From positions 1 to 55,761 of IMG/VR virus record IMGVR_UViG_3300037483_001815: DNA of 55,761 bases. The stretch is one strand, 5' to 3'. The DNA is from a virus (Duplodnaviria; Caudoviricetes). The translations under genes and the position numbers were made by a program. The notes beneath the pieces were generated by a model. It was not told where the DNA came from and ran no database searches. It was given only the letters and a program-made list of their open reading frames with translations. This document shows, in pieces, positions 870-14,803 of this stretch (positions are counted from its first letter, which is position 1; each line of letters begins with the position of its first letter).

Positions 870-1232
870 TCATTGCAGAATACCGGCCCGCCTGCTGTTT
901 GCCGCTCCATTCTGCTTACCCTTCATGTACGAGACCTCTTTCTCCAGCGCCGCATGGGATGCCTCCAGATCGTCCAGGTCATCGGCCGTGGCGTAAGTCT
1001 TAGGCAGATCCTCCCGGCAAGCCCGATGCTTCTCGTAGAGATCAATGATATGTTTTTGGATGTCCTCCGCCTTTTCTTTCAGGCGGGCCTCTGTCCCGTC
1101 CACCTGATCTTTTAACCGCTGTTCAGTACCTGATAGTTGGTTCTTGATAACCCAGACAGTGAGGCCGAAACCACCGCCGGTGGCCACCAGCAGCAACCCT
1201 GCCTCGAAAAACTGCTGTCCAATCCCCGTCAT
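870..1232 (-). CDS. Membrane-anchored coiled-coil protein (holin/XhlA-like)
   Basis: N-terminal hydrophobic helix then coiled coil; ATGA overlap with giant gene stop. Confidence 0.7.
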   Translation of the reverse strand: MTGIGQQFFEAGLLLVATGGGFGLTVWVIKNQLSGTEQRLKDQVDGTEARLKEKAEDIQKHIIDLYEKHRACREDLPKTYATADDLDDLEASHAALEKEVSYMKGKQNGAANSRRAGILQ

Positions 1233-4200
1233 TGCGGTAGGTCCTCCCGTCCGGCCGTGGCGGCCGCTTTTATTTTTTGCCGCTTCACGCCGGCCCGGGC
1301 CTTCTTGCGCGAGCCGATAATCACATCCCGGATAATGGCAGCCTGCCGCTCCGGGTCATACTTCCCCCATTTTTCCGACTGCACCAGGGGCAGCAGTCGG
1401 GCCTGGACCCGCTCTGAGCTTTTGCGCACATACTCCTCATAGGAGGCCCGGTCCAGCTTCTGCGGGATCCCGCCAATGACCATTGTGCGGGCGGGCGGCC
1501 CCATGTGTAGCAGCTTGGCCCTGGTAAGCCGCTCGATCTCCGCGCTCACCGGGTCATCGGCCAGCCGCACCGGCCCGGTCATGGGCGGCTGCCAGGCGTT
1601 ATGCACCCCGACGCCGGCGGAAAGCAGCAGGGCGGACAGGGTGTCCTCCTCGCCCTGCAGCCACTTAAAAAAATAGCCCACCTGCACCGGCTGCATGTTT
1701 ATCACCTGGTTGACCAGGGTGGCCGGCAGCCGGTCATAGGCGCCTTCTTTCTGGTTATGGGGGGAACCCTTCACCGTCTTGCCGGTGGCCAGAAAATCCC
1801 TGGAGCCGGTAAACGGCCGCTCCGCCCAGTCCGTGCCGCCCATCAGCGCCTCACCGGCCCGCATGATCGGGCTGCCCTTGCCCTTGATCAGCCGTGGTGG
1901 GTCAAAGAGTTTGAGCGGGTCCAGGAAATGGCCGGCCACTGGGAAAACCTTGCGCTTGCCTTCCAGGTCGATACCCAGGGCCTGGTAAATCTTGCTGATA
2001 TCGGCATACAGCCAGCGGAACTTATAAAAATTCTCACCGCTCATCTGTTCCTTCCAAAACTTTTCCGAATCATCCCAGCCATTCAGCAGAATCTGCAGCA
2101 GGAAGGTTGAGGCGGCGGTCCGCAGCAGTACTTTGGCGAAGAAGCGGTTGTAGTGCGGCCGCATGCCGGGGGTGGGCTGCATATCGCCCACCATCTTCGA
2201 TATCCACTCGTTGGCCTTGGGTATCAGGCCGCTGACCATGCGAAAGTTGCTTTCAGTATTGCCGGTAATAAACATCAGGCCTTCACGTTCGGCCAACCAG
2301 AACCCGGTATCGACGGATGGGCACCATATAGTGCCAGAGTAATCAACCTCTCTCTTATTATTGTGATGCCCCCAGCAACTGATGTCTTTGCCCCTGGTGA
2401 TCCACCTAGTCCGCCAGCAGTTCTTTTCCTGCTGGTAGAACGTGCTCGGCAACCCCATCATGGTCTGCAGCATGGTCATTAAGAACACTTCTTTTTCCTT
2501 ACCGCAAAATCTTTTCTGCCCGGTGCCGTCGCCAAGCATCATCGTGTCATAAAGGATCTGCCTCTGCTCATCCGTCAGCCTGCGCAAAAACTCCCAGGTC
2601 AGATTATTGTCTTTGATTCCAAGCTTCTCCATCTCGGAAATGGTCTTCGCCGGCACCGAAAAAACATAGGCAGGATGCCGCGAGACAAATTTCCCATGGT
2701 CAGAAACAAAATTGTCCACATAGCAGGAGAACCCCATATCCTTCAGTATCTTGACCGTATGCGGTTTTGCCTGCTTTATTTTCCCTGTCCTGCTGTGCCC
2801 GACCGAACCATCCTTTCTTGTCCATCTGACTGGTTTTACGTGGCCGTCTGTCACCATCCATCCCACAGTTCTCACCAGATTATCGGTAATTGTTTTATCA
2901 ACTGGAGCCGGAAACGGCGCACAACGCGGAATCAAGTGGTTCGTCTGTAAATCTTTCGCCTTAACAATGTCATACTGGCCGGTGGTGAAATTCCGGGCAT
3001 AACAGGTATGCTCCGGGGTCATCATGATGTGGCGGTTGACATTCCTGATCTGCACCATCTTCCCCGCATAGTGCTGGTTGACATACTTGTCTTGCAGCCT
3101 TGACCATCGCAGGGTATGCGTTTGCGGGTCAAAGGCCATGATCTCATCATCGTCCGACAGCTCATGGTAAAAGCGCCAGCCATCTTTGGTCATGGCCCTG
3201 GTCTTGGCATCGACACACCAGTCGGGGGCCAACAGCAGCAAGCGCAAGATCTTCTGCAGGGTCGGGTGACGGCCCATACGTTGCAGGTGCAGGCCGCCGA
3301 AATCCTCATTGATCAGCCTGGCTACACGTTCGGCAACCTTGTCCACGTCCGGCGCCGGTCCCTGACCGCGCTCAAAACGCTCCTTGGCCCGCTGCAGCTC
3401 ATGCACATACTCTATGGCAAAGGCCTCGGCCTTGAGCCCGGCGAAATACCGCTTGAACAGGGAATCAGCCATGCCCTGCCGCAGCCGTGACCCCTTGTCC
3501 ATGGCCTTATCCACCGCTTCCAGTCCAAGATGGCGGGCGAGCTTACGGGAATAGCCCAAGTCCTGCCGCAGGGCCGACTCATCCCAATCCTGCATGTTTC
3601 CCAGGGTGAGCCCGTTCTTGACCCCGCGCATGATGAGCGGGTGCAGGTTCTCGATCTTGCGCACCCCCATCTTATAGGCCCGGACCGGATTGATACCGGC
3701 GGTCCGGAGCGTTTCTCCGCTCACCGGATCAGTAATGGACTGCGGCCGCCAGCCATGATCTACCCCAAACGCCCAGGACCTGGTGCCGGCGATATGGTGG
3801 AAGAAGGAGGAGAGCAGGATCCAGCTCTTCAGGGAGGCATTGATCCGCAGCAGCTGCTGGGCGCCAGGCAGGCTGGCAAAGAGGCGGTCCTTTCTGGTCG
3901 CCTGGTTGAGGAGCTGGGCCAGTTGCGGCGGGGCATACAGCTTGCGCCGCTCCCAGGCGTCGGCCACGTCCTTGGCCGGCCGGTACTGGACGGTGGCCGG
4001 GAAATCCCGGCCGTCGGCATAGACCATGGCCGCGGCCTGGTTGCCAAACAGACGCAGCGCCCGCTTGGCCGGCTTGCCGTTTTCATCCAGCCGATGCACG
4101 GCCCACAGCTCCGGCGCACTCTGCACCTGGCTGTAAAAAAACTTACGGCCGTGGGAGTTGACGAAAAGCACCTGCTCGTCATCCGGCCCCTTCTCCGCCT

Positions 4201-7200
4201 TGATGTCGCCGGCCCATTCCCACACGGCAAAGCCTGATGCCTCAAGCTCCACATAGTCCTTGTATTCACCGGACCGGCTGGTGGAAAACAGCCGCCGGCC
4301 CTGCAGGTCACGGGTGCCGTAGCCCAGGCGGACAAAATCCTTGTTGGCCAGGATCTCCTCCAGCTCGGCCTGGTACACCCCGTAGGAGCTGGTCAGGCCC
4401 TGGACTTTCAGGTCATAGCCCGCCATCCAGCCATCCAGAATGGTGTCAAACTTGCGGTGCATCCTGGCCGTGGAAAAAACCTTAAAACCTTGGCCGGATC
4501 CGGCTGACATGAAATCATCCTGCCGGCCCTGGGGCAGGTTCCAGATGCGCCGCACATAGTTATCCCGGAAACCGCCGATCACCTTGTTGGCCTGGGCCAC
4601 CTGGCCGGCCTGGTCGAATAGCTCGCCGATGCGATCGGCAAACCCCAGCTGCTCGGGGGTAAGCCGGTCCATCCGGTCGAGCACGGCCAACTGCTCCTTG
4701 AGGCGCAGCCGCTCCTCGCCCTTGGCCCTGGGCAGCCGATCAGCGGCCCAGGTACGGAAGGCCTCCACCTTGTCCGGATCCGCCTGCACGTCCCGCCAGA
4801 CCATGAGCGCCATGTCCAGCAGATCGCTGTCCGCCGATCGTTTTAATTTGCTGTAGGCAAAACCCAGCACATGACGCCGGCGGGAGGCCTGCCCGGCCAT
4901 GCCCTGCAGCTCCTTCTGCAGGGCCGCGGTCTTGACGGATGCCAGGTGTTGGCCCAGGTCACGCTGGGCAAACAGGCGGTTTAGAAAGGTCCGGTCCTCT
5001 GCCAGATCCCGGGCCACGGCAGCCGGGGAGTTCTCCACCGGTTCCCGCATGAACAGCGGCTGCCCGGCCAGGGCCTCGGCCCGCATCTCCGGGGTGATGT
5101 CCAGGGTGTGGACCTCCACGGCCTGGTCACCATGGTTGATCTTGCCCCGGCCCACCTTGACCCCCCATTTCTTGACCAGGCGGTTGACGGTCGACGGCAG
5201 GATCTTATCGTAAAAGGCCTTCATCCCCTCGCCGCCCACGGACAGCTCTATCCCGGAAAGAATTTTAGCGCCCTTAATCCTGCCGACGATCCGGGACATT
5301 GACTCCTTACCGTCTCCGTTGACAATCTTGTCGGCCATTTCTTTGCCCACGACGCCGGGCAGATCCTCGGCTGCAAACGCCCCGAAATTGTGCAGTGAAC
5401 CATCAATGGTAATCCCCTCGAGATGATATTCACCAATGGTTTGCGCCTGCATATTCCTGTTTTCTTCCGTGACGACGTTATAGGCTATTTCCTTAAAATA
5501 CCGGCTCATATCGTAGCGGTCTGCCTGCTGCTCGCCCGTGGTCCAGCCGATCCGGTCAAAGCCGTGGTCGGCGGCCCAGCGCACCATGCGCTTCATGGCC
5601 AGCATGGACAACTTGTCCGTGCCGGCAAAAGGGGCGGGGGCCACGCCGCCAGGGCCGTATCCCAGTTTACGGCCGGCCTGGTGCCAGTCGCTCTGCACCT
5701 CCTCGACAAAGAGCAGCCGCTTGCCGTCCGCGTCCGTCCGCTCGTTAAACCGCACATGGGCCAGCACATTCGGCTCGGACCAGTGGGCTGAGTGGAATGT
5801 CGTGTATTTCGGCGCAGACTCCCGCATCACCATGTCGATCTGCACGCCAAGATTCCGCAGTTGCCGCTGCCTCTCCGGATCAGCCGGCTGCTCGGCCAGT
5901 TGGTCACGCTGAGCAATGAGCTGGTTTATTCTGGCCGACCTGGCCGCGTGCTCGCCGTTTTGGTCCACCGGCAGGGTAAACAGCAGCTCCCGGTAATTGC
6001 CGCCGGCTGGCAGCAGCTGCTGCCCCATGTATTGCACAGTGTCACCGCCATAGGCGTCCAGCAGGTTCCAGTTGCCTGCCTCATCCTGTACCGGCGCAAA
6101 ACCAAACAGAAATTGACCGTTACGGTCAACCAGTCTGTTATTGTTTTCTGCAACCTCCATCAGGTCCTTGATTGTGGCAAAACCGTGGGGGAAAACCGTG
6201 CCGCCACCGCCCTTGACCACCTCCTCCACCTGCAGGTTGTTTTCCGCCAGCCAGGCCAACAGCTCATCTTTGGTAATCCGGCTGGCCTGATCCTGGCCGG
6301 CCAGCCATTCCGGCAATCCGGACCATTGCAGTTCCTCGGCCTTGATCTGGCCTTTCTTAACCCAGGAGTTAATTGTCTGCGTAAAGGAGGAGGGGGAGCC
6401 CGACCCGGGCAGTTTGGCGGCCAGGTGCCGCTGCATGGCGGAAAAGAAAACAGGGGCCGGGGTGCGCTGGGCCATGGTCTGCCCAGCCCGGCCCATGGCC
6501 GGCACCTCGGCTTGCAGGAAATCGGCCACCGCCTCGGCTGCCGCGGCCCGGGCCGTCTCCAGGTCGGAAAACATGACGGCCACGCCGGCGCCCTGGCGCA
6601 GCTTGAACATGGCCAGGACTTTATCCAGAAAGCTCTGCACCCACCTGGAAATCCGGACAAAGAGCGACGGTTCGCGGGCCGCCACCTGGTCCCAAAAATC
6701 CTGTTCCAGGAAATTCTCGCCGATGAAATCGGCCAGCAGCTCGCTTTCCAGCCTGGAATAGGTCAGGGGATCCTCGCCGACAGACTGCTGCAGGGCCTGG
6801 ATCCTCTCCTGGTAACGCTTCCATGGGGAGGCATAGACCAGGGGCATGACGGCGTCGTGAAATTTTTGGAAAAGGTGGGGAGCGTCAAGCTCCATGCGGT
6901 GGGTCAGTTCGTGGCCCAGGACATACAGATAGGGCTTGGGGGTGTTGGCATGGATGTAGATGACATCCGGACTGCCGGGGAGCACGGTGCCGCCGATGCG
7001 CAGCCGCTCATGCTCCCGGTTGTGGAAAAAAACTACTCTTCTTCCGAACTCTTTGGCGAGCTGTTGCGTTGCATCAGCATCGCGCTCAGACACGGAGACT
7101 TCGGTAAGAAATCCCCCGGCCAGGGATCGAGTGGCCTGTCCTGCTCTTGAGGCTTGGCGGTATTCCCGTTCAAGCTCGCGGGTGTCGTCGGTTTCTTTGC

Positions 7201-10200
7201 CTGGTCCATATTTTTCTTTCCTTGACGTGGTTTCTTCACGTTGGGACATTACCCCGGTGCCGGCCGCGCTGTCAAGTAGAGGATTCACCTCACCGGCAAA
7301 GGCCTCGGCGTCCTCCCGGCTGCCCTCGAAGACCATATTCTTGGAAAAACGGGACCAATACCCTTTGTGCTTCTTGGCGATGGCGGCCACCTGCTGATAG
7401 GTGTCCCGGTCCAGCCGCTGGGACCAGGTGGCGGTGAAGATCTCCTGACCCTTCTGTTTGTGCCATCCCCTGGCCACGGTCACGGCGCCTCCTGCTGTTG
7501 GCATGGACGGGGCCGCGGCCTGCTCCTGCCTGGGGGCGGCCGGCAGCCTGGCTGGCATCTCCAGATGCTCGATGCGGGTAAACAGCTCCTCGATGTTCTC
7601 CGCGTTGGACAGGTCATAATTGTTCTGTCCGGACAGCAGCGCTGCCTGGTCCTTGTCCAGCACCTTGTCAAATACCAGGACCCTGGTTCTCACCTTGGTG
7701 GCGGCCCGCTCAAAGGTCACCGCCGGCAGGGTCACGGTGCCGCGCAGATAGACCCCCTTGGTTTCCTCATAGAACTTATCCAGTTTTTTGTCCGCCGCCG
7801 GACCTTCCGGCAGCAGGGCCACGATGCGGCCGCCGTCCCGCAGGTGTCTAACCGCCTTGGCCAGGTGGGCTACCGCCGTGGATCCGCCGGAACCGAAAGG
7901 AGGATTCATGATGATGAAATCGTATTTGTTGTGCGGGTCCAACTCCTCAAAGGTCCCTTCCCGCTGCACGCCGCTGGCGTTCACCGCCAGCTGGGAGGCC
8001 AGCACGCTGCTCGGCTCGACAAAGTGATTGGTGGTGTCCCCCGGGAAGAAGCGGGCGATGGCCCCGTGGCCGGCGGACGGCTCCAGGCCGATCTCGCCGG
8101 CGGCCGGGCTGCCCCATTCCACCATCTTCATGCCCACCGGCTCCGGAGTGGCAAAGTAGTCCTTGCCCTCCCGGCTCTTCTGGCGTTGGGTCTTTTTGCC
8201 GCGGCCGTAGTAATAGGTCCTGGCCCGGGAAAACTCACTCAGGCCCTCGAAATTACCGTCTTTCTCCTTGCCTCCCCGCCCCTGGTCCGCATGGGGGAAA
8301 ACGTTGCCGGCGTTAAGATAGCCCTCTTTAAAGGCGGTATCCAGGTCACGGGCTGCATCGCCCATAGCCAGGTTCTCTACGGTGCGCACCCTGGCGTTGA
8401 TCTTGGAGCCATAGGCTATCTGCTCAAAGGAGGTGTGCAGCACCAGATACTCCATGATGGCGTCCGACCGCTGCCCCACCCGGTAGATGCGGCCCTCGCC
8501 CTGGATGGCGGCCGGCGGGCTATAGGGCAGGCCCAGGTCCATGAACACCCGGTTGTGCTTGCCGGTCACGTCGTGCAGACTGTCCCCTTCCTTGCCGGCG
8601 GCCCGCAGCACCAGAATGACATCAGCGCCTGAATCATCATCATTGAAGCGGCGGATATTCTCCGTGCGCTGGCGGCCTGGCACCCGGCCGTTGTAGAGCA
8701 CCACCCGGTCGCCGAAGGCCTGGGTCATGGTGGTGATGGCCGGTTTCAGGCCGCGCAGATCAAGCTGGGCGTACTGAGGATATTTGGTGTTGAAATGGGC
8801 CACCTCCTTGCCGGCGGCGGATTCAGGGGAAAAACCGGAAAAGGCGAAAGGATGGCCTGGCGCCCCCTCGATATAGTCATGGAACACCACCACCTTGCGG
8901 CCCAGCTCCAGGTGTTTTTTGACCCTGGCCACCGCCTCCCGGGCCTTCAGGGTTTCCAGCAACCGGTTGACATAGTGGTAGTCATAGGCTTTGCGGACGA
9001 TCGCGGGCAGAACCTCGTATTTGTTCTCCTCGCGGTCCTTCCAGCCGCGGACAATGTCCATGCCGTCATCGATCTGACTGCCCAGTTCGGAATCCAGCAG
9101 CACGAATTCCCGGGAGTAGTCAAAGGGCACGTCCAGCTTGCGGCCGGAAACTGATCTGGCAGCCACCAGCTTCTGGTGCAGGTTGCGCTCCAACAGGCCC
9201 ACATCCACCCCGCTCTCCGGCTGGGTCAGCTTGTTGTAGCGCATCCGATAGCCGAGATTGGTCATAAACCAGCGGTCTGTGTTGGCCCCGCCGTTGTAGC
9301 CACGGGAAGTCTCGTCTTTGGCCTGGCCCTCGTCTACGTCAAACAGATACTTGTCGGCGTAGAGCAGGGACTTGTGGTGGGCAAACGGGGTAGCGGACAG
9401 AAAAACCACCTTGGCGAATCCTGTGCGTTCTGCCGCCTGCTGCCGCAGCCTGCCCTCGATCGCCCGGCGCTCATCGGCAAACTCATCCCAGGCCGTGGAC
9501 TGAGCTTGCCACCTCCGGGATGATTCCTTATCACCGGCCATAAACCCGCTATCCGCCAGAATCTCTGCTTTTCTGGCCGCCGTCTTGGCCACCAGCTCCC
9601 GCCACTCCTGGTCCCCCAGCTTGGCCTTGTCCACCAGGTAATCCGGATGATCGGCGGCGATGCGGTGGGCATTGATAAAGGCGGCGTTCTGGTCGCCGTC
9701 CTTGCCGGCGGAAACGAAATGGCTCTCGTCGTAGATGATCAGATCATGGTGGCGGGCCTGCAGGGCCTCGTTCTGGTATAAATTGGCATAGGTGGTGATG
9801 AGCAGGCCAGGCCCGCTGTCCTTGGTGTCCGCCAGGGGCCGGATGGAAAGCCCGAGATTTTCCCCGTCCTTTATCCAGTCCTGCACCTTGGTCTGCTTGG
9901 GCACCACCAGCAGGATCTCGGTCTTGCCGGCGGAAAAGAAACGGCGGGCCACACCCAGGCCGGTGTACGTTTTTCCCGTGCCCGTGCCGTTGGTGAACAG
10001 CATGCCCCGGCCGTCATCCTCATAAAAGCGCTTCTCTGCCTTCAAGACATCGTCTTGCTGCTCCGGGAAAAGAAAAGGCAGGCTTTCCCTGATGTTGTCA
10101 ATGGAATAAAAGGAAACCGGCAGCGTGTTGGCTTTTGCCTGCTGCCGGCGGCTGCGGGCTAGGTCGTCGTCTGCTCGGCCGGTGTGTTCGGCCAGAGGGC

Positions 10201-13200
10201 CTGCAGCATGGTCAGTAGTTGGTTGGTCTGCTCGCTGGTCATCTGGTGCTCCATGCTCATCAGCAGGGCCGCCTCGCTGGGACTCCTCACCTCCGGCAGG
10301 GCCTGCCGCAGATCCATCTTCTCCGGCCGGCTGAGATAGCCGCTGATCGCCTTGCTTTCCAGCAACAGCGGCACCACGTCCTGGTACGCCGTGATCACCT
10401 TGCTGGGCAGGCCCTTGGCCGTCAGCTCTGACTCTTCCTTCTCCACGGCCGTCTGCAGCTCGGGAAACGACAGGGGAAACATCTTCTTTCCCCACTCCGT
10501 CGCCAGTTCCTGCGTCCCGGCTATCTCGTTCCAGATGTAAGTCGGTACCTGATACATGATTGTCGATCTCCTTTGCCAGCCGCTCAACATCGGCCTCGCT
10601 GTCCATCCCGGCCTTGTCCACGCCGGGAAAGTTCTTGGCCCCCAGGTAAAACCCGGGGAGATAGGGCCGGAGCTTGTCAGCCACCTCGGCCAGGACCTCA
10701 TCACCCAGCATGGCCCGGGAGAAATCAGCAAACTTCCTGGCCCCGGCCTCGATATGATAGGCGGCCATCTCGGCGCCGATGGCGAACAGCTCCGGATCAA
10801 AGCCGGCATTGAGCCGGCCCAGCTTGTCCTTTAACTTGTTTCTGAGTTCTTCGTAGCGGGCGACGCTGACGATCTTGTTGTCGCTGCCGTAATCGGCCGC
10901 ACCTTCCCGGTCAGGGGAGACCTTTTGCTCTCCACGTCGTCCAGCGCCCCGGTCAGGATGTCTGCTATCTCCGGTATCCTGGTCACCTGGTCGAGCTGGT
11001 CGATCCCCAAACAATGATTGCTGTGCTTTTTCATACAGATTCCCCGTTGCCAGCCCGATGGCTGTTTCCACCAGCTCCATGGCGGCTGGTTCTTTCTTCT
11101 CCCCAAACAGACTCTTCTGCTTGGGATTGCCTGCGGCCCGCACCCGGCGCACATAGGCCTGCAGAAAATCATTGACCTTCTTGCCGCTTCTGCTGTTCTG
11201 GTCGAAAAACCGCAGCAGCCGCTTGGTCAGATCGGTGCGCGGATCCCCGAACAGGTTAAGCTGAGCCAGTTCAGCTTCCACGCCTATGCCCTCGGCCCGC
11301 AGCCGGGCGAAATCCTCCACCGCTGCAGCCAGCCCCCCGGTTATATCCAGATTATAAAGCTCTCCGGCGGAAATATCAAGGCGCATCCGGGCGATGGCAG
11401 GAGCGGCCTGCAGCATGCCGTTGGTGATGTTGCGGATATTGTTGTCCGTGGATTCCACCACCCGGGCCACCACCTGCTGGTTTGGATAGGCGGCGGCAAA
11501 TACCGCGTTGCGGATCCTGCTGGTGCCGGACTGAGACAGCTTGCCATCCGCATCCATCATGGTGTTCTGCTCGCCCTGGGGCAGCAGGCCGATGAACCGC
11601 CGGATAAACGGCCGGTTGGCCGCTGTATCAATCGCCCCCGTATCGCTGGCCGCGAAATCGTCCAGGGAGGCCAGCAGCTCGGCGTCGGCCATGGCCTTTT
11701 CATAGTCGCTCATGTCGGAGACGCCTGCGGTGTTGGCCTCCTTGGCCAGGCCGGCCAGCTCCTCCATGTCCATCCGGTCCACCAGCTGGCGGACCAGCAC
11801 CGGCTCTTTGATGTTGTCCAGGGCCTCGGCCATGATGCCGAACTGGCCGAGATGGTCAACCAGCCATTGCCGGTAGGGCAGGGCCGTCTCGCCGGCGTAG
11901 GCCTTGCGCAGGCCGATGGACCGGCCGTTGCCGGACAATACAACCAGGTCCGGAGTAACCACCGGCGCCCCTTCGCTTATCTTAGGGTTAGCCCCCAGCC
12001 AGGCCCCCCTGGGGGCCTTGGCTATCTTGTCCACCTGCAGGCGGTAGGCATCCCGGGTGCGCTCCCTGGGCTGCAGCCGGGCCGGGTAATCCATGTTCGC
12101 CGCCAGCTCGTCGTCGTGACTGGTAACCAGGTCCGCGGCCTCCACCACCGCGTAGCGCAGATTCATCCTGCGTCCGGCCTCGGTGTCCGCCGTCAGCAGG
12201 GCGCCTTTGGCCATGCGCTCCGCCGGCGGGGAGAAGGTTGCCGGGGCGGGCACGTCCTGTTTTTTGCCTAGGTTGGGGAGGAAGGGGGAAACGGACACCG
12301 GGGCATTGGGCGATTTGTCACCGCCCATATCGTCCAACGCATCTTGTTTTTCTGGCAGTTTAACGTTGGGCGCTGTTTCTCCCTCTTCCCCGCCCAGCTT
12401 ATCCAGCTCGCCCTTGGCCGGCATTGCGGCATCGGCCTTTTCCTGCTCCTTGCGCACCGTGGCGTTGTAAAAAGACAGGGCCACCTGGGCGTGCCCCAGC
12501 TTGACCCCCAGGGCCTCGGCGGCCTGGTTCACCAGGGAGGCCTGCGCGGGCCTTTCTCCCGGCTGCCACTCCGGATCCAGCTTGGTAATCTCGGCCGCCA
12601 CCCGCTGGCCAAGCTCGTAATACTTTTTCCCGGCGGGCCGCCTCTCCTTTTGGCCGGTCAAGGTGGCAACGGCAGAGGCCTTTTCCTCCGGTTCCGTGGG
12701 CGGGGCCGCTGTCTCCTGCCCGGCTGCCTGTTGCTCGATTTGCTCGATCCCGGCTATCTTGCCCTGTAACTTTTCCAGGGCTTTCTTTGCCGTCATGGCC
12801 CAGCCGGTGAGCGGTTCATTTTCAACAATCGCGGTGCCATGCCCGTCCTGGCCCGGGATAAATGCCTGATACCCGCCGGACGGGGATTTTACCACATTGA
12901 TCTTGCCGTAAGGTGTTTCCTTCTCCCGGTCGGCAATCCCGGCCTCATCCGCCGGCTTCTTCTTACCGGTCAACGTGGAACCGGCAGCGGCCTTTTTCTC
13001 CGCCGCCGCCGGCCGCGCTCCAGCTGATTCATCGACGGGGGGGGCAGTCTGCCCGCCTTCCTGTCCGGCCACGCCGGACAACTGCTCACCCACCAACTGT
13101 CGGACAAATTCCGCTTCCGCCGCCGGGTTTACCCCCGGCATAACCGCCGCTTCACCTGCCGGAGAAACCTGTCCGGGCAGCTCTTCCGGCAGAGGGGCTG

Positions 13201-14803
13201 GCGCCGGGGCAATATCCGTCTCGGCGCCTGCCTGGGGGATTTCCCCTTGCATCATCTGCTGGGCCGGAGACATCTCCTCCGGCGCCAGCCCCTCTGCCGG
13301 CGGCTGTACCGGCGGCTGGAAAGGGTCCTGGGCAGTGCTTGCCGCCTGCTCCTGCTCGGCCACCAGGGCGGCGGCAAACTCCTTTTCCCGGGCCGCGGCC
13401 TGGCGTTCCGTCTCCAGGACCTGCCGGCTCCGCTGCCGGCGCCGCTCCTGCTCCTGGGCCGCCTGTTCAGCCCGGCGCTCATCAGCCAGGGCATCGTCCG
13501 CCACCGCGCCGCCTGCGGCCCCCAGGGTTTCGTCCTGGGGCGGCTCCTGGGCCGCGGCATCCTCAAAGGACGTACCCAGGTCAAAGGCGTCGTTGGCCGC
13601 CACCACCTGGTCGGCATAGGTCCGCCACTGCCGGGCCAGGTTGGGGAAAACTGACTTGATGGATTTTTCCACCTCCTGGACCGCCTCGGCCCGTTTCAGC
13701 TTCCGCCGGCCGGCCTCCTTTTCATCCAGGCCGTCCGGTACCGGATTCTCCAGGGCCTGCCTGGTCTGCCTGATATTGGCCATGTGCAGGCCGCCGCCCA
13801 GGCCGCCGAAAATGATACTGGCCACCCCGATGGGGCCGGCCTGCTTCTCGATGGCCTGCCAGAAATCATCCGTGCCGGCTTCGTAGTGGCGCATGATCTC
13901 CGCCTGGGTGCCGGTATTGGCCAGTTCGCCCGTGGCCTCGGCGCCGGTCACCGCAACCCCTTTCTTGACCGCCTGCTTCCAGGATCCGGCCAGCATGCCC
14001 TGCAGGCTTTCCTTCAAGATCTCCTTGCCCGGGGCGGTGAGCACCCGGCCGCTCCCCAGGGTCAGCAGCTCGATGGCGTCGGATCCGAACTCCCAGCCCA
14101 TTTCGGAATAGGCCTCCAGCCTGGCCGCCTCGGCCGCCTCCTCCGGTTCATAGCCCATGTTCAGGTAGCGCTTTTCCGCTTCATTATACTGGGCGGCCCC
14201 GAACAGCGGCACGCCGGTCAGATAACCGGCCACCGCACCGGGCAGACCACCGGCTGCCAGGCCGACGGCCACGCCCGGCAGCTTGCTGCCCAGGGATACC
14301 ATGGCGCTCTCCACGCCCTGGGTCACGGCGCCGCGCACCCCGCCCTGGGCGCTCTCCCTGGACATGGGAAATTGGTCCTCTTTCCAGTCCGCCAGCTCAT
14401 CCGCTTTTTTCGCGGCCCAGTCTTTCAGATCAAAGCCGGGGGCGAACTCCTCGCTGCCGCCGGACAGGCCGGGGCCGCTGACCGCCACCCGGTCCGCCAG
14501 CCGGTCGTGCATGGCCACGCCCTGCAGCAGCATCTCCATGATGCCGGCCGGCGCCCGCTTGACCGTATTGGCCAGATCAGTGCCGAAGGTGCGGCTTTCA
14601 GCCTCCGGCCGGAAGGACTCAATGTGGGTATTGACAAAGTTGTTCCTGGTCCGGTCCCGCACATGCTTGTCAAGCTGGCGAAACTCGTCATCCGCCAGCT
14701 TGCCGTCAAAATAATTGGCCAGCACCTGCCGCTTGTCGCTGGTGGGAAGTTTGGCGAACTCCGGATTCTGAAACCACTTGCTGACTGTCTGACTAAGATT
14801 CAT
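1229..14803 (-). CDS. Giant polyvalent DarB-like internal virion protein (ParB-like domain, SF2 helicase, N6-adenine methyltransferase, zincin, intein)
   Basis: 4524 aa; ParB-like LQPRER..GAPVV..SGNGR; Walker A NGTGTGKT, DESH, QGEGRIYR; LEPSAGHG and MNPPFG; HELTH; last gene after ejection proteins. Confidence 0.9.
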   Translation of the reverse strand: MNLSQTVSKWFQNPEFAKLPTSDKRQVLANYFDGKLADDEFRQLDKHVRDRTRNNFVNTHIESFRPEAESRTFGTDLANTVKRAPAGIMEMLLQGVAMHDRLADRVAVSGPGLSGGSEEFAPGFDLKDWAAKKADELADWKEDQFPMSRESAQGGVRGAVTQGVESAMVSLGSKLPGVAVGLAAGGLPGAVAGYLTGVPLFGAAQYNEAEKRYLNMGYEPEEAAEAARLEAYSEMGWEFGSDAIELLTLGSGRVLTAPGKEILKESLQGMLAGSWKQAVKKGVAVTGAEATGELANTGTQAEIMRHYEAGTDDFWQAIEKQAGPIGVASIIFGGLGGGLHMANIRQTRQALENPVPDGLDEKEAGRRKLKRAEAVQEVEKSIKSVFPNLARQWRTYADQVVAANDAFDLGTSFEDAAAQEPPQDETLGAAGGAVADDALADERRAEQAAQEQERRRQRSRQVLETERQAAAREKEFAAALVAEQEQAASTAQDPFQPPVQPPAEGLAPEEMSPAQQMMQGEIPQAGAETDIAPAPAPLPEELPGQVSPAGEAAVMPGVNPAAEAEFVRQLVGEQLSGVAGQEGGQTAPPVDESAGARPAAAEKKAAAGSTLTGKKKPADEAGIADREKETPYGKINVVKSPSGGYQAFIPGQDGHGTAIVENEPLTGWAMTAKKALEKLQGKIAGIEQIEQQAAGQETAAPPTEPEEKASAVATLTGQKERRPAGKKYYELGQRVAAEITKLDPEWQPGERPAQASLVNQAAEALGVKLGHAQVALSFYNATVRKEQEKADAAMPAKGELDKLGGEEGETAPNVKLPEKQDALDDMGGDKSPNAPVSVSPFLPNLGKKQDVPAPATFSPPAERMAKGALLTADTEAGRRMNLRYAVVEAADLVTSHDDELAANMDYPARLQPRERTRDAYRLQVDKIAKAPRGAWLGANPKISEGAPVVTPDLVVLSGNGRSIGLRKAYAGETALPYRQWLVDHLGQFGIMAEALDNIKEPVLVRQLVDRMDMEELAGLAKEANTAGVSDMSDYEKAMADAELLASLDDFAASDTGAIDTAANRPFIRRFIGLLPQGEQNTMMDADGKLSQSGTSRIRNAVFAAAYPNQQVVARVVESTDNNIRNITNGMLQAAPAIARMRLDISAGELYNLDITGGLAAAVEDFARLRAEGIGVEAELAQLNLFGDPRTDLTKRLLRFFDQNSRSGKKVNDFLQAYVRRVRAAGNPKQKSLFGEKKEPAAMELVETAIGLATGNLYEKAQQSLFGDRPARPGDQDTGDSRHPDRGAGRRGEQKVSPDREGAADYGSDNKIVSVARYEELRNKLKDKLGRLNAGFDPELFAIGAEMAAYHIEAGARKFADFSRAMLGDEVLAEVADKLRPYLPGFYLGAKNFPGVDKAGMDSEADVERLAKEIDNHVSGTDLHLERDSRDAGTGDGVGKEDVSPVVSRAADGRGEGRVRADGQGPAQQGDHGVPGRGAAVAGKQGDQRLSQPAGEDGSAAGPAGGEESQRGGPADEHGAPDDQRADQPTTDHAAGPLAEHTGRADDDLARSRRQQAKANTLPVSFYSIDNIRESLPFLFPEQQDDVLKAEKRFYEDDGRGMLFTNGTGTGKTYTGLGVARRFFSAGKTEILLVVPKQTKVQDWIKDGENLGLSIRPLADTKDSGPGLLITTYANLYQNEALQARHHDLIIYDESHFVSAGKDGDQNAAFINAHRIAADHPDYLVDKAKLGDQEWRELVAKTAARKAEILADSGFMAGDKESSRRWQAQSTAWDEFADERRAIEGRLRQQAAERTGFAKVVFLSATPFAHHKSLLYADKYLFDVDEGQAKDETSRGYNGGANTDRWFMTNLGYRMRYNKLTQPESGVDVGLLERNLHQKLVAARSVSGRKLDVPFDYSREFVLLDSELGSQIDDGMDIVRGWKDREENKYEVLPAIVRKAYDYHYVNRLLETLKAREAVARVKKHLELGRKVVVFHDYIEGAPGHPFAFSGFSPESAAGKEVAHFNTKYPQYAQLDLRGLKPAITTMTQAFGDRVVLYNGRVPGRQRTENIRRFNDDDSGADVILVLRAAGKEGDSLHDVTGKHNRVFMDLGLPYSPPAAIQGEGRIYRVGQRSDAIMEYLVLHTSFEQIAYGSKINARVRTVENLAMGDAARDLDTAFKEGYLNAGNVFPHADQGRGGKEKDGNFEGLSEFSRARTYYYGRGKKTQRQKSREGKDYFATPEPVGMKMVEWGSPAAGEIGLEPSAGHGAIARFFPGDTTNHFVEPSSVLASQLAVNASGVQREGTFEELDPHNKYDFIIMNPPFGSGGSTAVAHLAKAVRHLRDGGRIVALLPEGPAADKKLDKFYEETKGVYLRGTVTLPAVTFERAATKVRTRVLVFDKVLDKDQAALLSGQNNYDLSNAENIEELFTRIEHLEMPARLPAAPRQEQAAAPSMPTAGGAVTVARGWHKQKGQEIFTATWSQRLDRDTYQQVAAIAKKHKGYWSRFSKNMVFEGSREDAEAFAGEVNPLLDSAAGTGVMSQREETTSRKEKYGPGKETDDTRELEREYRQASRAGQATRSLAGGFLTEVSVSERDADATQQLAKEFGRRVVFFHNREHERLRIGGTVLPGSPDVIYIHANTPKPYLYVLGHELTHRMELDAPHLFQKFHDAVMPLVYASPWKRYQERIQALQQSVGEDPLTYSRLESELLADFIGENFLEQDFWDQVAAREPSLFVRISRWVQSFLDKVLAMFKLRQGAGVAVMFSDLETARAAAAEAVADFLQAEVPAMGRAGQTMAQRTPAPVFFSAMQRHLAAKLPGSGSPSSFTQTINSWVKKGQIKAEELQWSGLPEWLAGQDQASRITKDELLAWLAENNLQVEEVVKGGGGTVFPHGFATIKDLMEVAENNNRLVDRNGQFLFGFAPVQDEAGNWNLLDAYGGDTVQYMGQQLLPAGGNYRELLFTLPVDQNGEHAARSARINQLIAQRDQLAEQPADPERQRQLRNLGVQIDMVMRESAPKYTTFHSAHWSEPNVLAHVRFNERTDADGKRLLFVEEVQSDWHQAGRKLGYGPGGVAPAPFAGTDKLSMLAMKRMVRWAADHGFDRIGWTTGEQQADRYDMSRYFKEIAYNVVTEENRNMQAQTIGEYHLEGITIDGSLHNFGAFAAEDLPGVVGKEMADKIVNGDGKESMSRIVGRIKGAKILSGIELSVGGEGMKAFYDKILPSTVNRLVKKWGVKVGRGKINHGDQAVEVHTLDITPEMRAEALAGQPLFMREPVENSPAAVARDLAEDRTFLNRLFAQRDLGQHLASVKTAALQKELQGMAGQASRRRHVLGFAYSKLKRSADSDLLDMALMVWRDVQADPDKVEAFRTWAADRLPRAKGEERLRLKEQLAVLDRMDRLTPEQLGFADRIGELFDQAGQVAQANKVIGGFRDNYVRRIWNLPQGRQDDFMSAGSGQGFKVFSTARMHRKFDTILDGWMAGYDLKVQGLTSSYGVYQAELEEILANKDFVRLGYGTRDLQGRRLFSTSRSGEYKDYVELEASGFAVWEWAGDIKAEKGPDDEQVLFVNSHGRKFFYSQVQSAPELWAVHRLDENGKPAKRALRLFGNQAAAMVYADGRDFPATVQYRPAKDVADAWERRKLYAPPQLAQLLNQATRKDRLFASLPGAQQLLRINASLKSWILLSSFFHHIAGTRSWAFGVDHGWRPQSITDPVSGETLRTAGINPVRAYKMGVRKIENLHPLIMRGVKNGLTLGNMQDWDESALRQDLGYSRKLARHLGLEAVDKAMDKGSRLRQGMADSLFKRYFAGLKAEAFAIEYVHELQRAKERFERGQGPAPDVDKVAERVARLINEDFGGLHLQRMGRHPTLQKILRLLLLAPDWCVDAKTRAMTKDGWRFYHELSDDDEIMAFDPQTHTLRWSRLQDKYVNQHYAGKMVQIRNVNRHIMMTPEHTCYARNFTTGQYDIVKAKDLQTNHLIPRCAPFPAPVDKTITDNLVRTVGWMVTDGHVKPVRWTRKDGSVGHSRTGKIKQAKPHTVKILKDMGFSCYVDNFVSDHGKFVSRHPAYVFSVPAKTISEMEKLGIKDNNLTWEFLRRLTDEQRQILYDTMMLGDGTGQKRFCGKEKEVFLMTMLQTMMGLPSTFYQQEKNCWRTRWITRGKDISCWGHHNNKREVDYSGTIWCPSVDTGFWLAEREGLMFITGNTESNFRMVSGLIPKANEWISKMVGDMQPTPGMRPHYNRFFAKVLLRTAASTFLLQILLNGWDDSEKFWKEQMSGENFYKFRWLYADISKIYQALGIDLEGKRKVFPVAGHFLDPLKLFDPPRLIKGKGSPIMRAGEALMGGTDWAERPFTGSRDFLATGKTVKGSPHNQKEGAYDRLPATLVNQVINMQPVQVGYFFKWLQGEEDTLSALLLSAGVGVHNAWQPPMTGPVRLADDPVSAEIERLTRAKLLHMGPPARTMVIGGIPQKLDRASYEEYVRKSSERVQARLLPLVQSEKWGKYDPERQAAIIRDVIIGSRKKARAGVKRQKIKAAATAGREDLPQ
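2258..3217 (-). mobile_element. Intein (320 aa) with LAGLIDADG-type homing endonuclease motifs in the giant protein
   Basis: APDW|CVDAKTRAMTKDGW... TPEH block B ... GWMVTDG, TMMLGDG ... WCPSVDTGFWLAEREGLMFITGN|TES; visibly more AT-rich than flanks. Confidence 0.9.
10159..10557 (-). CDS. Candidate nested gene (132 aa) in +1 frame of giant gene
   Basis: AAGGAG 10 nt before ATG; MYQVPTYIWNEIAGTQELATEWGKKMFPLSFPELQTAVEKEESEL... has normal globular composition while the host frame is G/D/R/A low-complexity. Confidence 0.6.
   Translation of the reverse strand: MYQVPTYIWNEIAGTQELATEWGKKMFPLSFPELQTAVEKEESELTAKGLPSKVITAYQDVVPLLLESKAISGYLSRPEKMDLRQALPEVRSPSEAALLMSMEHQMTSEQTNQLLTMLQALWPNTPAEQTTT

Follow-up and report, generated by a model that had tools for sequence, protein, structure and literature searches.

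A probable small gene nested in a shifted frame of a giant DarB-like phage gene

We analyzed the IMG/VR virus record IMGVR_UViG_3300037483_001815 (Duplodnaviria; Caudoviricetes) over its entire length of 55,761 bp, referred to here as the window. The record is a provirus with an estimated completeness of 93%. Its minus strand carries a giant open reading frame (ORF; positions 1229 to 14803; 4,524 amino acids [aa]) for a DarB-like polyvalent virion protein, which contains ddrB-ParB, helicase, methyltransferase, and HExxH regions. An original prediction, made from the letters of the window, proposed that a second gene is nested in the +1 frame of this giant ORF at positions 10159 to 10557, and that both frames are coding. 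Judged from sequence comparisons, we put the probability at about 0.85 that this 132-codon ORF is a real, separately translated embedded gene through which the giant frame is also read. The proposal of dual coding is supported by the nesting of the small ORF in 35 of 36 homologous loci, by selection on the small frame, by the absence of giant-frame stops across the overlap beyond chance, by the enrichment of Shine-Dalgarno-like motifs before the internal start codon, and by the prediction of a fold in one frame and of disorder in the other.

Results

A complete ORF inside the giant ORF

The small ORF lies on the minus strand, like the giant ORF that contains it, and is complete in its own frame: it opens with an ATG at positions 10557 to 10555, runs for 132 codons, and ends with a TAG at positions 10161 to 10159. 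An AAGGAG sequence resembling a Shine-Dalgarno (SD) motif is found at positions 10568 to 10573 of the same strand, 10 nucleotides (nt) before the ATG. The coordinates and the sequence are as originally claimed, and the frame arithmetic (14803 - 10557 = 4246 = 3 x 1415 + 1) agrees with a position in the +1 frame of the 13.6-kb giant ORF. We refer to this gene and its homologues as family A. The longest ORF in the small frame opens further upstream, at position 10809, and would encode 216 aa. However, its first 84 residues are an R/P/W-rich shadow sequence, and the homologues described below all align from the Met encoded at 10557, not from the start at 10809.

To characterize the two frames, we scanned the GC content by codon position. 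The giant frame has overall values of 0.66, 0.44, and 0.76 at codon positions 1, 2, and 3, respectively. Between giant nt 4275 and 4575, these values become 0.86 to 0.92, 0.60 to 0.64, and 0.38 to 0.48, which is the usual coding pattern moved to the +1 frame. The switch covers the small ORF exactly and reverts right past its stop, in agreement with the suggestion that the giant frame is the shadow frame across this region. Over the same bases (10159 to 10558, minus strand; giant aa ~1416 to 1548), the giant frame reads as a stop-free, G/D/R/A-rich linker that is predicted to be disordered. Other +1 ORFs in the giant gene had been described as shadows, and this was true of both of the two examples that we examined. 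One is the upstream part of the small frame, up to position 10809. The other is a 113-aa ORF at positions 10831 to 11172, which was rejected as a second embedded gene, as it looks like a C/R/W-rich shadow frame. This ORF covers a second G/D/R-rich region of the giant frame with a low GC content at codon position 3 (0.40 to 0.60), at positions 10903 to 11128 of the minus strand (giant nt 3675 to 3900; aa ~1225 to 1300), which may simply be another disordered linker.

Conservation of the nested arrangement

Searches with the small protein returned 364 cluster representatives, among 1.84 billion, at E ≤ 1e-3, including 163 at E ≤ 1e-10. Most of these homologues are 118 to 130 aa long and align from residue 1, and there are no giant proteins among the best 150. 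In an alignment of 50 sequences, Met1 is invariant and 12 positions are conserved at a level of at least 90%. Three longer representatives (P0105, P0099, and P0131) were considered as possible carriers of the giant's upstream domain in frame, but the BLASTP matches were not significant (E = 0.34 to 1.7).

The original prediction had called for a tblastn search with the 132-aa peptide. This search matched eight phage records, corresponding to six distinct phages (ZX1, Parlo, Skulduggery, Ruegeria 45A6, Vibrio D274, and Vibrio 1.232.O), and one Comamonas plasmid. By coordinate arithmetic, all seven of these GenBank matches lie in the +1 frame of the sole annotated coding sequence (CDS), the giant gene, and none of the seven records annotates the small ORF. 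We then compared a set of 36 loci (33 from IMG/VR and 3 from GenBank, less L033, which is cut by the end of its contig, plus the window). Stops in the +1 frame of homologous linkers had been named as an observation that would speak against the gene. Instead, the small ORF was intact and lay wholly within a long ORF, always in its +1 frame, in 35 of the 36 loci; a contig end interrupts the remaining one. The spanning ORF measures from >3.3 to 13.6 kb and is often bounded by the end of the locus. The nesting is kept between lineages with no more than 31 to 48% identity.

The small protein matched no family in Pfam, PHROGs, or NCBIfam. The window's own small protein was absent from a collection of ~15 billion called proteins. 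Family-A copies that have been called are found mostly on contigs of 0.5 to 1.6 kb, and the only name given to them is "hypothetical protein." The small gene is called mainly on such short contigs, in which the giant ORF is cut. Gene finders that do not allow nested genes on the same strand would systematically miss genes of this kind except on fragmented contigs. The expectation that annotation pipelines would overlook the gene is thus borne out both by the seven GenBank records and by the collection of called proteins.

Selection on the small frame and openness of the giant frame

We estimated the ratio of nonsynonymous to synonymous substitution rates (omega) in 13 closer pairs by the method of Nei and Gojobori, which was not designed for overlapping frames. 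In the small frame, omega was 0.05 to 0.83 in all 12 computable pairs, with a median of ~0.3; synonymous divergence was saturated in one pair. The same bases read in the giant frame gave values of 1.14 to 2.97 in the 13 pairs. We regard these values above 1 as a by-product of the constraint on the other frame and not as a sign of positive selection. Substitutions were commonest at position 3 of the small frame in every identity band. Moreover, the sole invariant residues of the linker (L135 and E136 in DLERDS) are the shadow of a conserved stretch of the small protein, IWNEIA. By these comparisons, the small frame is under purifying selection at the amino acid level; the per-frame analysis found such selection in the small frame only, and not in the main frame.

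To assess the openness of the giant frame, we calculated the probability of finding no giant-frame stop across the overlap, given the flanking codon usage and the sequence of the small protein. This probability ranged from 3e-7 to 0.27 per locus, and the summed log10 P was -65.8 for 29 nonredundant representatives (<80% identity). A more conservative synonymous shuffle within the ORF, which kept the ORF's own biased codons, gave a summed log10 P of -36.9 for the 36 loci. A T at position 3 of the small frame would begin a giant-frame stop. Its frequency at this position was 0.071, compared to 0.175 in the flanking giant codons, and it was lower in 36 of 36 loci. As far as the alignments of these loci go, the host frame is kept by selection across the overlap with respect to its openness only, and not its sequence.

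Predicted structures of the two products

AlphaFold2, supplied with the 50-sequence alignment, predicted a confident fold of eight helices for the 132-aa protein alone (predicted local distance difference test score [pLDDT], 93.2; predicted template modeling [TM] score, 0.85), which agrees with the ordinary helical-protein composition noted from the sequence. Conversely, the giant-frame reading, modeled with 25 aligned relatives, had a pLDDT of 35 to 49 and no secondary structure at model residues 131 to 246. In this model, the disordered linker is flanked by a confident helical domain and by the start of the helicase. Foldseek searches with the small protein against PDB and BFVD gave no matches at E ≤ 1e-3 (best TM score, ~0.3), and the ESM Atlas gave no usable match.

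A second, unrelated family at the same position

Family A is missing from the giants of BcepIL02, Gervaise, POI1126, LASTA, Stean, Pavtok, Itty13, VvAW1, Atu_ph08, and Mwe-JY07. In these giants, the GC pattern flips as it does in the window and at the corresponding place, hereafter called the slot, where they carry another +1 ORF of 105 to 130 aa with its own ATG, usually an SD-like motif, and the sequence pattern MNLNNW..HWK..P..Y..LK..G.L. We designated these ORFs family B; the set of family-B loci (L047 to L057) consists of the ten phages above plus PBC5. Families A and B are unrelated by profile comparison (hhalign probability, 0.4%), and family B is annotated in none of the records seen. 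The omega of family B was 0.21 to 0.41 in six of seven pairs, against 1.3 to 2.3 in the giant frame. In the pair formed by BcepIL02 and Gervaise, omega was ~1 in both frames, and the ORFs of these two phages are candidate genes, indicated by the ATG, the SD-like motif, the GC pattern, and a weak alignment to family B. A match of LASTA to the Pfam family TnpV (PF14198; transposon-encoded, function unknown) was rejected because its 18.0 bits (E = 0.003) fall below the 27-bit cutoff, and family A did not match TnpV.

Family B is nested in 10 of 11 loci. The exception is Sinorhizobium phage PBC5 (L056; AF448724), in which the family-B domain lies in frame at the C terminus of the 2,185-aa orf33. 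The giant of this phage is split (orf33 and orf23), with a downstream frame that has no stops from a point ~270 nt ahead of the small domain. Either the covalent form of PBC5 is natural, or its old sequence contains an indel of one base. Owing to this in-frame fusion, the PHROG family phrog_938 ("endolysin") matches family B, at positions 2084 to 2183 of 2185. In the record of Itty13 (L053; MW460249, positions 5006 to 11419), the annotated CDSs are on the opposite strand, and the giant frame is open across the 2.7-kb locus on the strand that carries family B; the CDSs deposited for this stretch may have been assigned to the wrong strand.

Linkage to the downstream enzyme

The small ORF of the window lies just before the helicase domain, as originally described. 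The helicase module (8222 to 10132, minus strand; giant aa ~1558 to 2194) is directly downstream, and its Walker A motif, GTGTGKT (9968 to 9988, minus strand; giant aa 1606), follows ~60 aa past the small-ORF stop. This order is general: family A is followed by a helicase in 36 of 36 loci, with the Walker A motif 44 to 69 aa after the stop, and family B is followed by a methylase in 11 of 11 loci, with the motifs GWG...NPPF and no Walker A motif within ~400 aa. The modules upstream of family A vary among loci. In Lastavirus, ZX1 carries family A and LASTA carries family B; the two are homologous at the nucleotide level (81 to 94%) up to the embedded ATG, where the homology stops. From the linkage, the variable upstream modules, and the break between ZX1 and LASTA, we conclude that the small gene and the downstream enzyme module form the unit of inheritance.

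We also predicted the complex between the small protein and a 650-aa helicase module. The interface score (interaction prediction score from aligned errors [ipSAE]) was 0.45 (0.43, 0.46, and 0.45 in the individual runs), which was graded as "weak support." The best of three controls scored 0.00, the runs agreed in at least 69% of contacts, and the pLDDT of the partners was at least 80. Of 80 solved complexes, 58 reach the mark for a pass, as do 2 of 110 mismatched pairs; an ipSAE of 0.60 or less with the mark reached was seen in only 7 of the 80 solved complexes and in both of the passing mismatches, and these benchmark counts apply only roughly here because the complex run used alignments of our own making (A5 for the helicase). 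The structural check that had been suggested thus gave a confident result for the small protein by itself, whereas its pairing with the helicase yielded a weak pass and no interface is reported. This pass modestly raises the odds of binding. As modeled, a direct contact between the small protein and the helicase is possible, although on balance we consider it somewhat doubtful.

Start of translation and alternative readings

In all 36 loci, homology starts with an ATG. In 23 of them, this ATG is preceded, at a distance of 4 to 20 nt, by an SD-like motif that is 5 nt or longer; the corresponding rates were 8.2% for control positions and 6.7% for the other ATGs of these genes. The binomial probability of this enrichment is 8e-17, calculated on loci that are not fully independent. 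In L005 and L008, a +1-frame stop immediately precedes the ATG, and in L001, L002, and L050 to L052, the stop is two codons away; phages with a stop at the latter distance include ZX1 and Parlo. In many other loci, such stops occur 15 to 36 nt before the ATG.

These observations bear on the possibility that a programmed +1 frameshift near position 10557 fuses the N-terminal ~1,415 aa of the giant to the small domain, with no independent initiation. The in-frame fusion of family B in PBC5 indicates that a covalent protein composed of the N-terminal part and a small domain would be viable. However, with +1 stops at or near the ATG, any shift into the conserved part would be confined to a tiny stretch, which is not conserved in sequence. 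By inspection, the upstream sequences are unconserved except for the SD-like motifs, and no shared slippery sequence was seen in them by eye, without a formal motif scan. In addition, homology begins exactly at the invariant Met, SD-like motifs are enriched before its codon, and free-standing genes of 120 to 130 aa start at the same Met. We therefore regard a frameshift as improbable.

A second alternative, which we hold to be equally improbable, is that the giant is not one protein. The upstream and helicase parts would then be made separately, the frame would be open for another purpose, such as translational coupling, and the linker would be cleaved rapidly or never completed. This class of genes is mosaic, the spanning ORF starts only 550 to 1,570 nt upstream of the small gene in L021, L023, and L036, and PBC5 is split at precisely this point. 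Embedded peptidases may also release domains, as noted in a study of polyvalent proteins (PMC5512222). On the other hand, the simplest explanation for the strong selection against giant-frame stops is that ribosomes must cross the region, and in the window no separate start codon for the helicase part is present close to the junction. Even if the giant were split, the region would be dual coded, so that the finding would stand and only what becomes of the linker would change.

The least credible alternative is a frame-shifted relic, that is, a former in-frame domain or gene displaced by compensating indels, in which only the linker is made and the small ORF is decaying: compensated frameshifts do occur, and translation of the small frame is not indicated by the window alone, but a relic would gain stops and lose its position-3 bias, whereas the small frame keeps a low omega (~0.05 to 0.5) and an intact start and stop across lineages at 31 to 48% identity, family B behaves likewise in six of its seven pairs, and the number of in-frame giant-protein domains among the best 150 homologues is zero.

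Several points nevertheless weigh against an embedded gene that is translated separately. We infer the translation of both frames from their conservation. The loci were retrieved by similarity to the small protein; its conservation is partly a matter of ascertainment, unlike the frame relation and the openness of the giant frame. Omega is biased in overlapping frames. The openness of the giant frame in the window by itself is unremarkable (P = 0.37 with the ORF's own codons and 0.086 with the flanking usage), and for this reason the window alone cannot separate dual coding from a shadow frame that is open by chance; it is the comparative data that make the openness significant. A clear SD-like motif was not seen in 13 of the 36 loci, and the family-B domain of PBC5 is in frame. 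Finally, the fold and family searches yield no clue to the function of the small protein, and the complex prediction amounts to a weak pass lacking a reported interface.

Free-standing and rearranged copies

At two loci from metagenome-assembled genomes (MAGs), L040 and L045, the small gene has no giant homologue within 12 kb. At the first of these (L040, positions 6001 to 10737; Burkholderiales MAG contig JANLTH010000166.1), the family-A gene adjoins a convergent gene for a ResIII-type helicase of 898 aa and a gene for an N6/N4 DNA methylase of 524 aa. This pairing of enzymes matches that of the giant, but each enzyme has a gene to itself, and the setting is chromosomal, with transporter genes alongside. 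At L041, the small gene comes after, and slightly overlaps, an ORF with homology to a different part of the giant. Of the relatives of the small protein of the window, the closest, at 77% identity, is found at L038 (Thermodesulfobacteriota MAG contig JBFMAY010000031.1). There, the giant is broken up over three frames and its helicase (giant aa ~1540 to 2325) is gone, and the small ORF is intact; either L038 is a prophage in decay, or its assembly contains indels.

Other modules of the giant gene

The giant ORF belongs to the late region and unites a helicase module and a DNA-methylase module in a single very long polypeptide, which places it in the DarB-like class. Its homologues in GenBank phages carry the names "DarB-like antirestriction protein" or "PLxRFG protein." Pfam searches identified ddrB-ParB at giant aa 876 to 1006 (E = 1.2e-29) and the N-terminal lobe of a ResIII helicase at giant aa 1582 to 1701 (E = 1.8e-9). 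A match to the MTS methyltransferase family at giant aa 2285 to 2348 scored 22.8 bits, just below the cutoff of 23, and an NPPF motif is present at giant aa 2300; a Helicase_C_4 match was also below the Pfam cutoff. The homologue in phage JC1, gp69, is reported to be virion associated by mass spectrometry (PMC9144972).

The helical domain upstream of the slot (10562 to 10879, minus strand; giant aa ~1309 to 1414) contains the sequence ...RPYLPGFYLG... and has a pLDDT of 86 to 97. It is common to the giants of Bcep22-like, Ralstonia, Klebsiella, and Erwinia phages (74 records) and is missing from the region 5' of many family-A loci. Far downstream, a segment of 320 aa (giant aa 3863 to 4182; 2258 to 3217, minus strand) starts with a Cys after ...LLLAPDW, ends in ...MFITGN before a Thr, and contains two DG motifs in between. 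By its motifs, this segment may be an intein with a homing-endonuclease core; Pfam gave nothing relevant for it.

Discussion

According to our model, ribosomes translating the giant gene would read through the ~400 bases of the overlap, and a disordered, G/D/R/A-rich linker would thereby connect the N-terminal part to the helicase. Initiation by other ribosomes at the internal AAGGAG-ATG would yield a separate, globular 132-aa protein of eight helices, ending at the TAG. The small gene would be the older of the two frames, and the giant ORF would have been built by reading through it, so that the linker is overprinted on an accessory gene. The existence of free-standing homologues makes read-through over an older gene the likely direction, rather than the birth of a new small gene. 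The small protein could be a dedicated accessory subunit of the helicase module, such as a regulator, an inhibitor, or a helper in assembly or packaging. The role advanced in the original prediction, that of a chaperone, inhibitor, or antitoxin for the neighboring enzyme, remains a proposal, on which the inheritance of the small gene together with the helicase and the weak pass of the complex prediction have a bearing.

A broader and more speculative extension, which we consider unlikely as it stands, is that polyvalent giants grow by "fusion through overprinting," with the small proteins acting as module-specific, noncovalent subunits and with a slot that is general and exchangeable. A small accessory gene and an enzyme gene would be captured together behind an N-terminal virion or ejection module. 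The upstream frame would then cross the small gene in its -1 frame, turning the older gene for a folded protein into a disordered linker as well, and the small protein would continue to be made from its own start. Family A would serve the helicase and family B the methylase, for example, by keeping the enzyme inactive or competent for packaging in the producer cell.

Embedded genes in the +1 frame are familiar in phages. In the spanin genes of lambdoid and many other phages, Rz1 lies wholly inside Rz, in the +1 frame, and both proteins have a function. The small gene described here likewise has a start of its own and is contained completely, on the same strand and in the +1 frame, within a late gene of a phage. 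It differs from Rz1 in that its host gene is a giant of more than 13 kb and the embedding frame is a nonconserved, disordered linker instead of a functional domain. Furthermore, the embedded product is predicted to be a soluble helical protein of 120 to 130 aa and not a lipoprotein, and the slot can hold either of two unrelated families, which go with different enzyme modules downstream. The embedded class of spanins is mentioned for Parlo and JC1 themselves (PMC6606913 and PMC9144972). Overprinted genes of small viruses, such as B in A and E in D of phiX174 (reviewed in PMC8227390), offer another comparison. As in such cases, one frame here appears ordered and conserved and the other disordered and fast evolving. 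The roles are reversed, however: the conserved, ordered frame is the small embedded gene, and it is the large host gene that contributes the disordered, "novel" one.

Regarding function, a parallel may be the Dar system of P1, which also has a capsid-packaged helicase/methylase with accessory proteins of similar size encoded adjacently or in the same late operons. In the P1 annotation, DdrA, Ulx, and Hdf are 121, 146, and 203 aa long, respectively. Work by Piya et al. in 2017 reportedly found that small Dar proteins of P1 are needed for the incorporation of DarB. A relationship of these three proteins to the embedded families was rejected, as hhalign gave probabilities of ≤0.2% in six of six comparisons with the family-A and family-B profiles. 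Unlike the genes described here, the P1 accessory genes are not embedded in darB. The small Dar proteins of P1 would thus be functional analogues at best.

The giant ORF itself resembles the polyvalent proteins described by Iyer et al. in 2017 (PMC5512222), with its ddrB-ParB, SNF2/ResIII-type helicase, methylase, and peptidase-like regions and its shuffled modules. A term search of the main text of that article found no mention of out-of-frame embedded genes; the sole use of "embedded" in the passages returned refers to peptidase domains. Our literature search, which did not extend to supplements, found no report of a gene embedded in a DarB-like gene, and the terms looked up in PMC6606913, PMC10052179, PMC9144972, PMC6630229, and PMC5512222 led to no such ORF in the portions of those articles that they reached. 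Embedded +1 phage genes are a known kind. What is unusual in the present case is that the unconstrained, disordered frame comes from the large gene, that the slot recurs across many phage genera, and that it is occupied by two unrelated families, each with its own enzyme module.

DarB-like giants make up a fifth of the genome in Bcep22-like phages, Lastavirus, Parlovirus, Pavtokvirus, and many uncultured phages, and several of these phages are under study for therapy. As all of the records seen annotate one CDS at the slot, the annotation of each of these genomes would be missing a conserved gene. The arrangement also provides an unusually clean natural case for the evolution of dual coding, in which free-standing homologues give the direction. 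Lastly, a small partner that is specific to one enzyme module may offer a handle on the control or packaging of very large injected enzymes.

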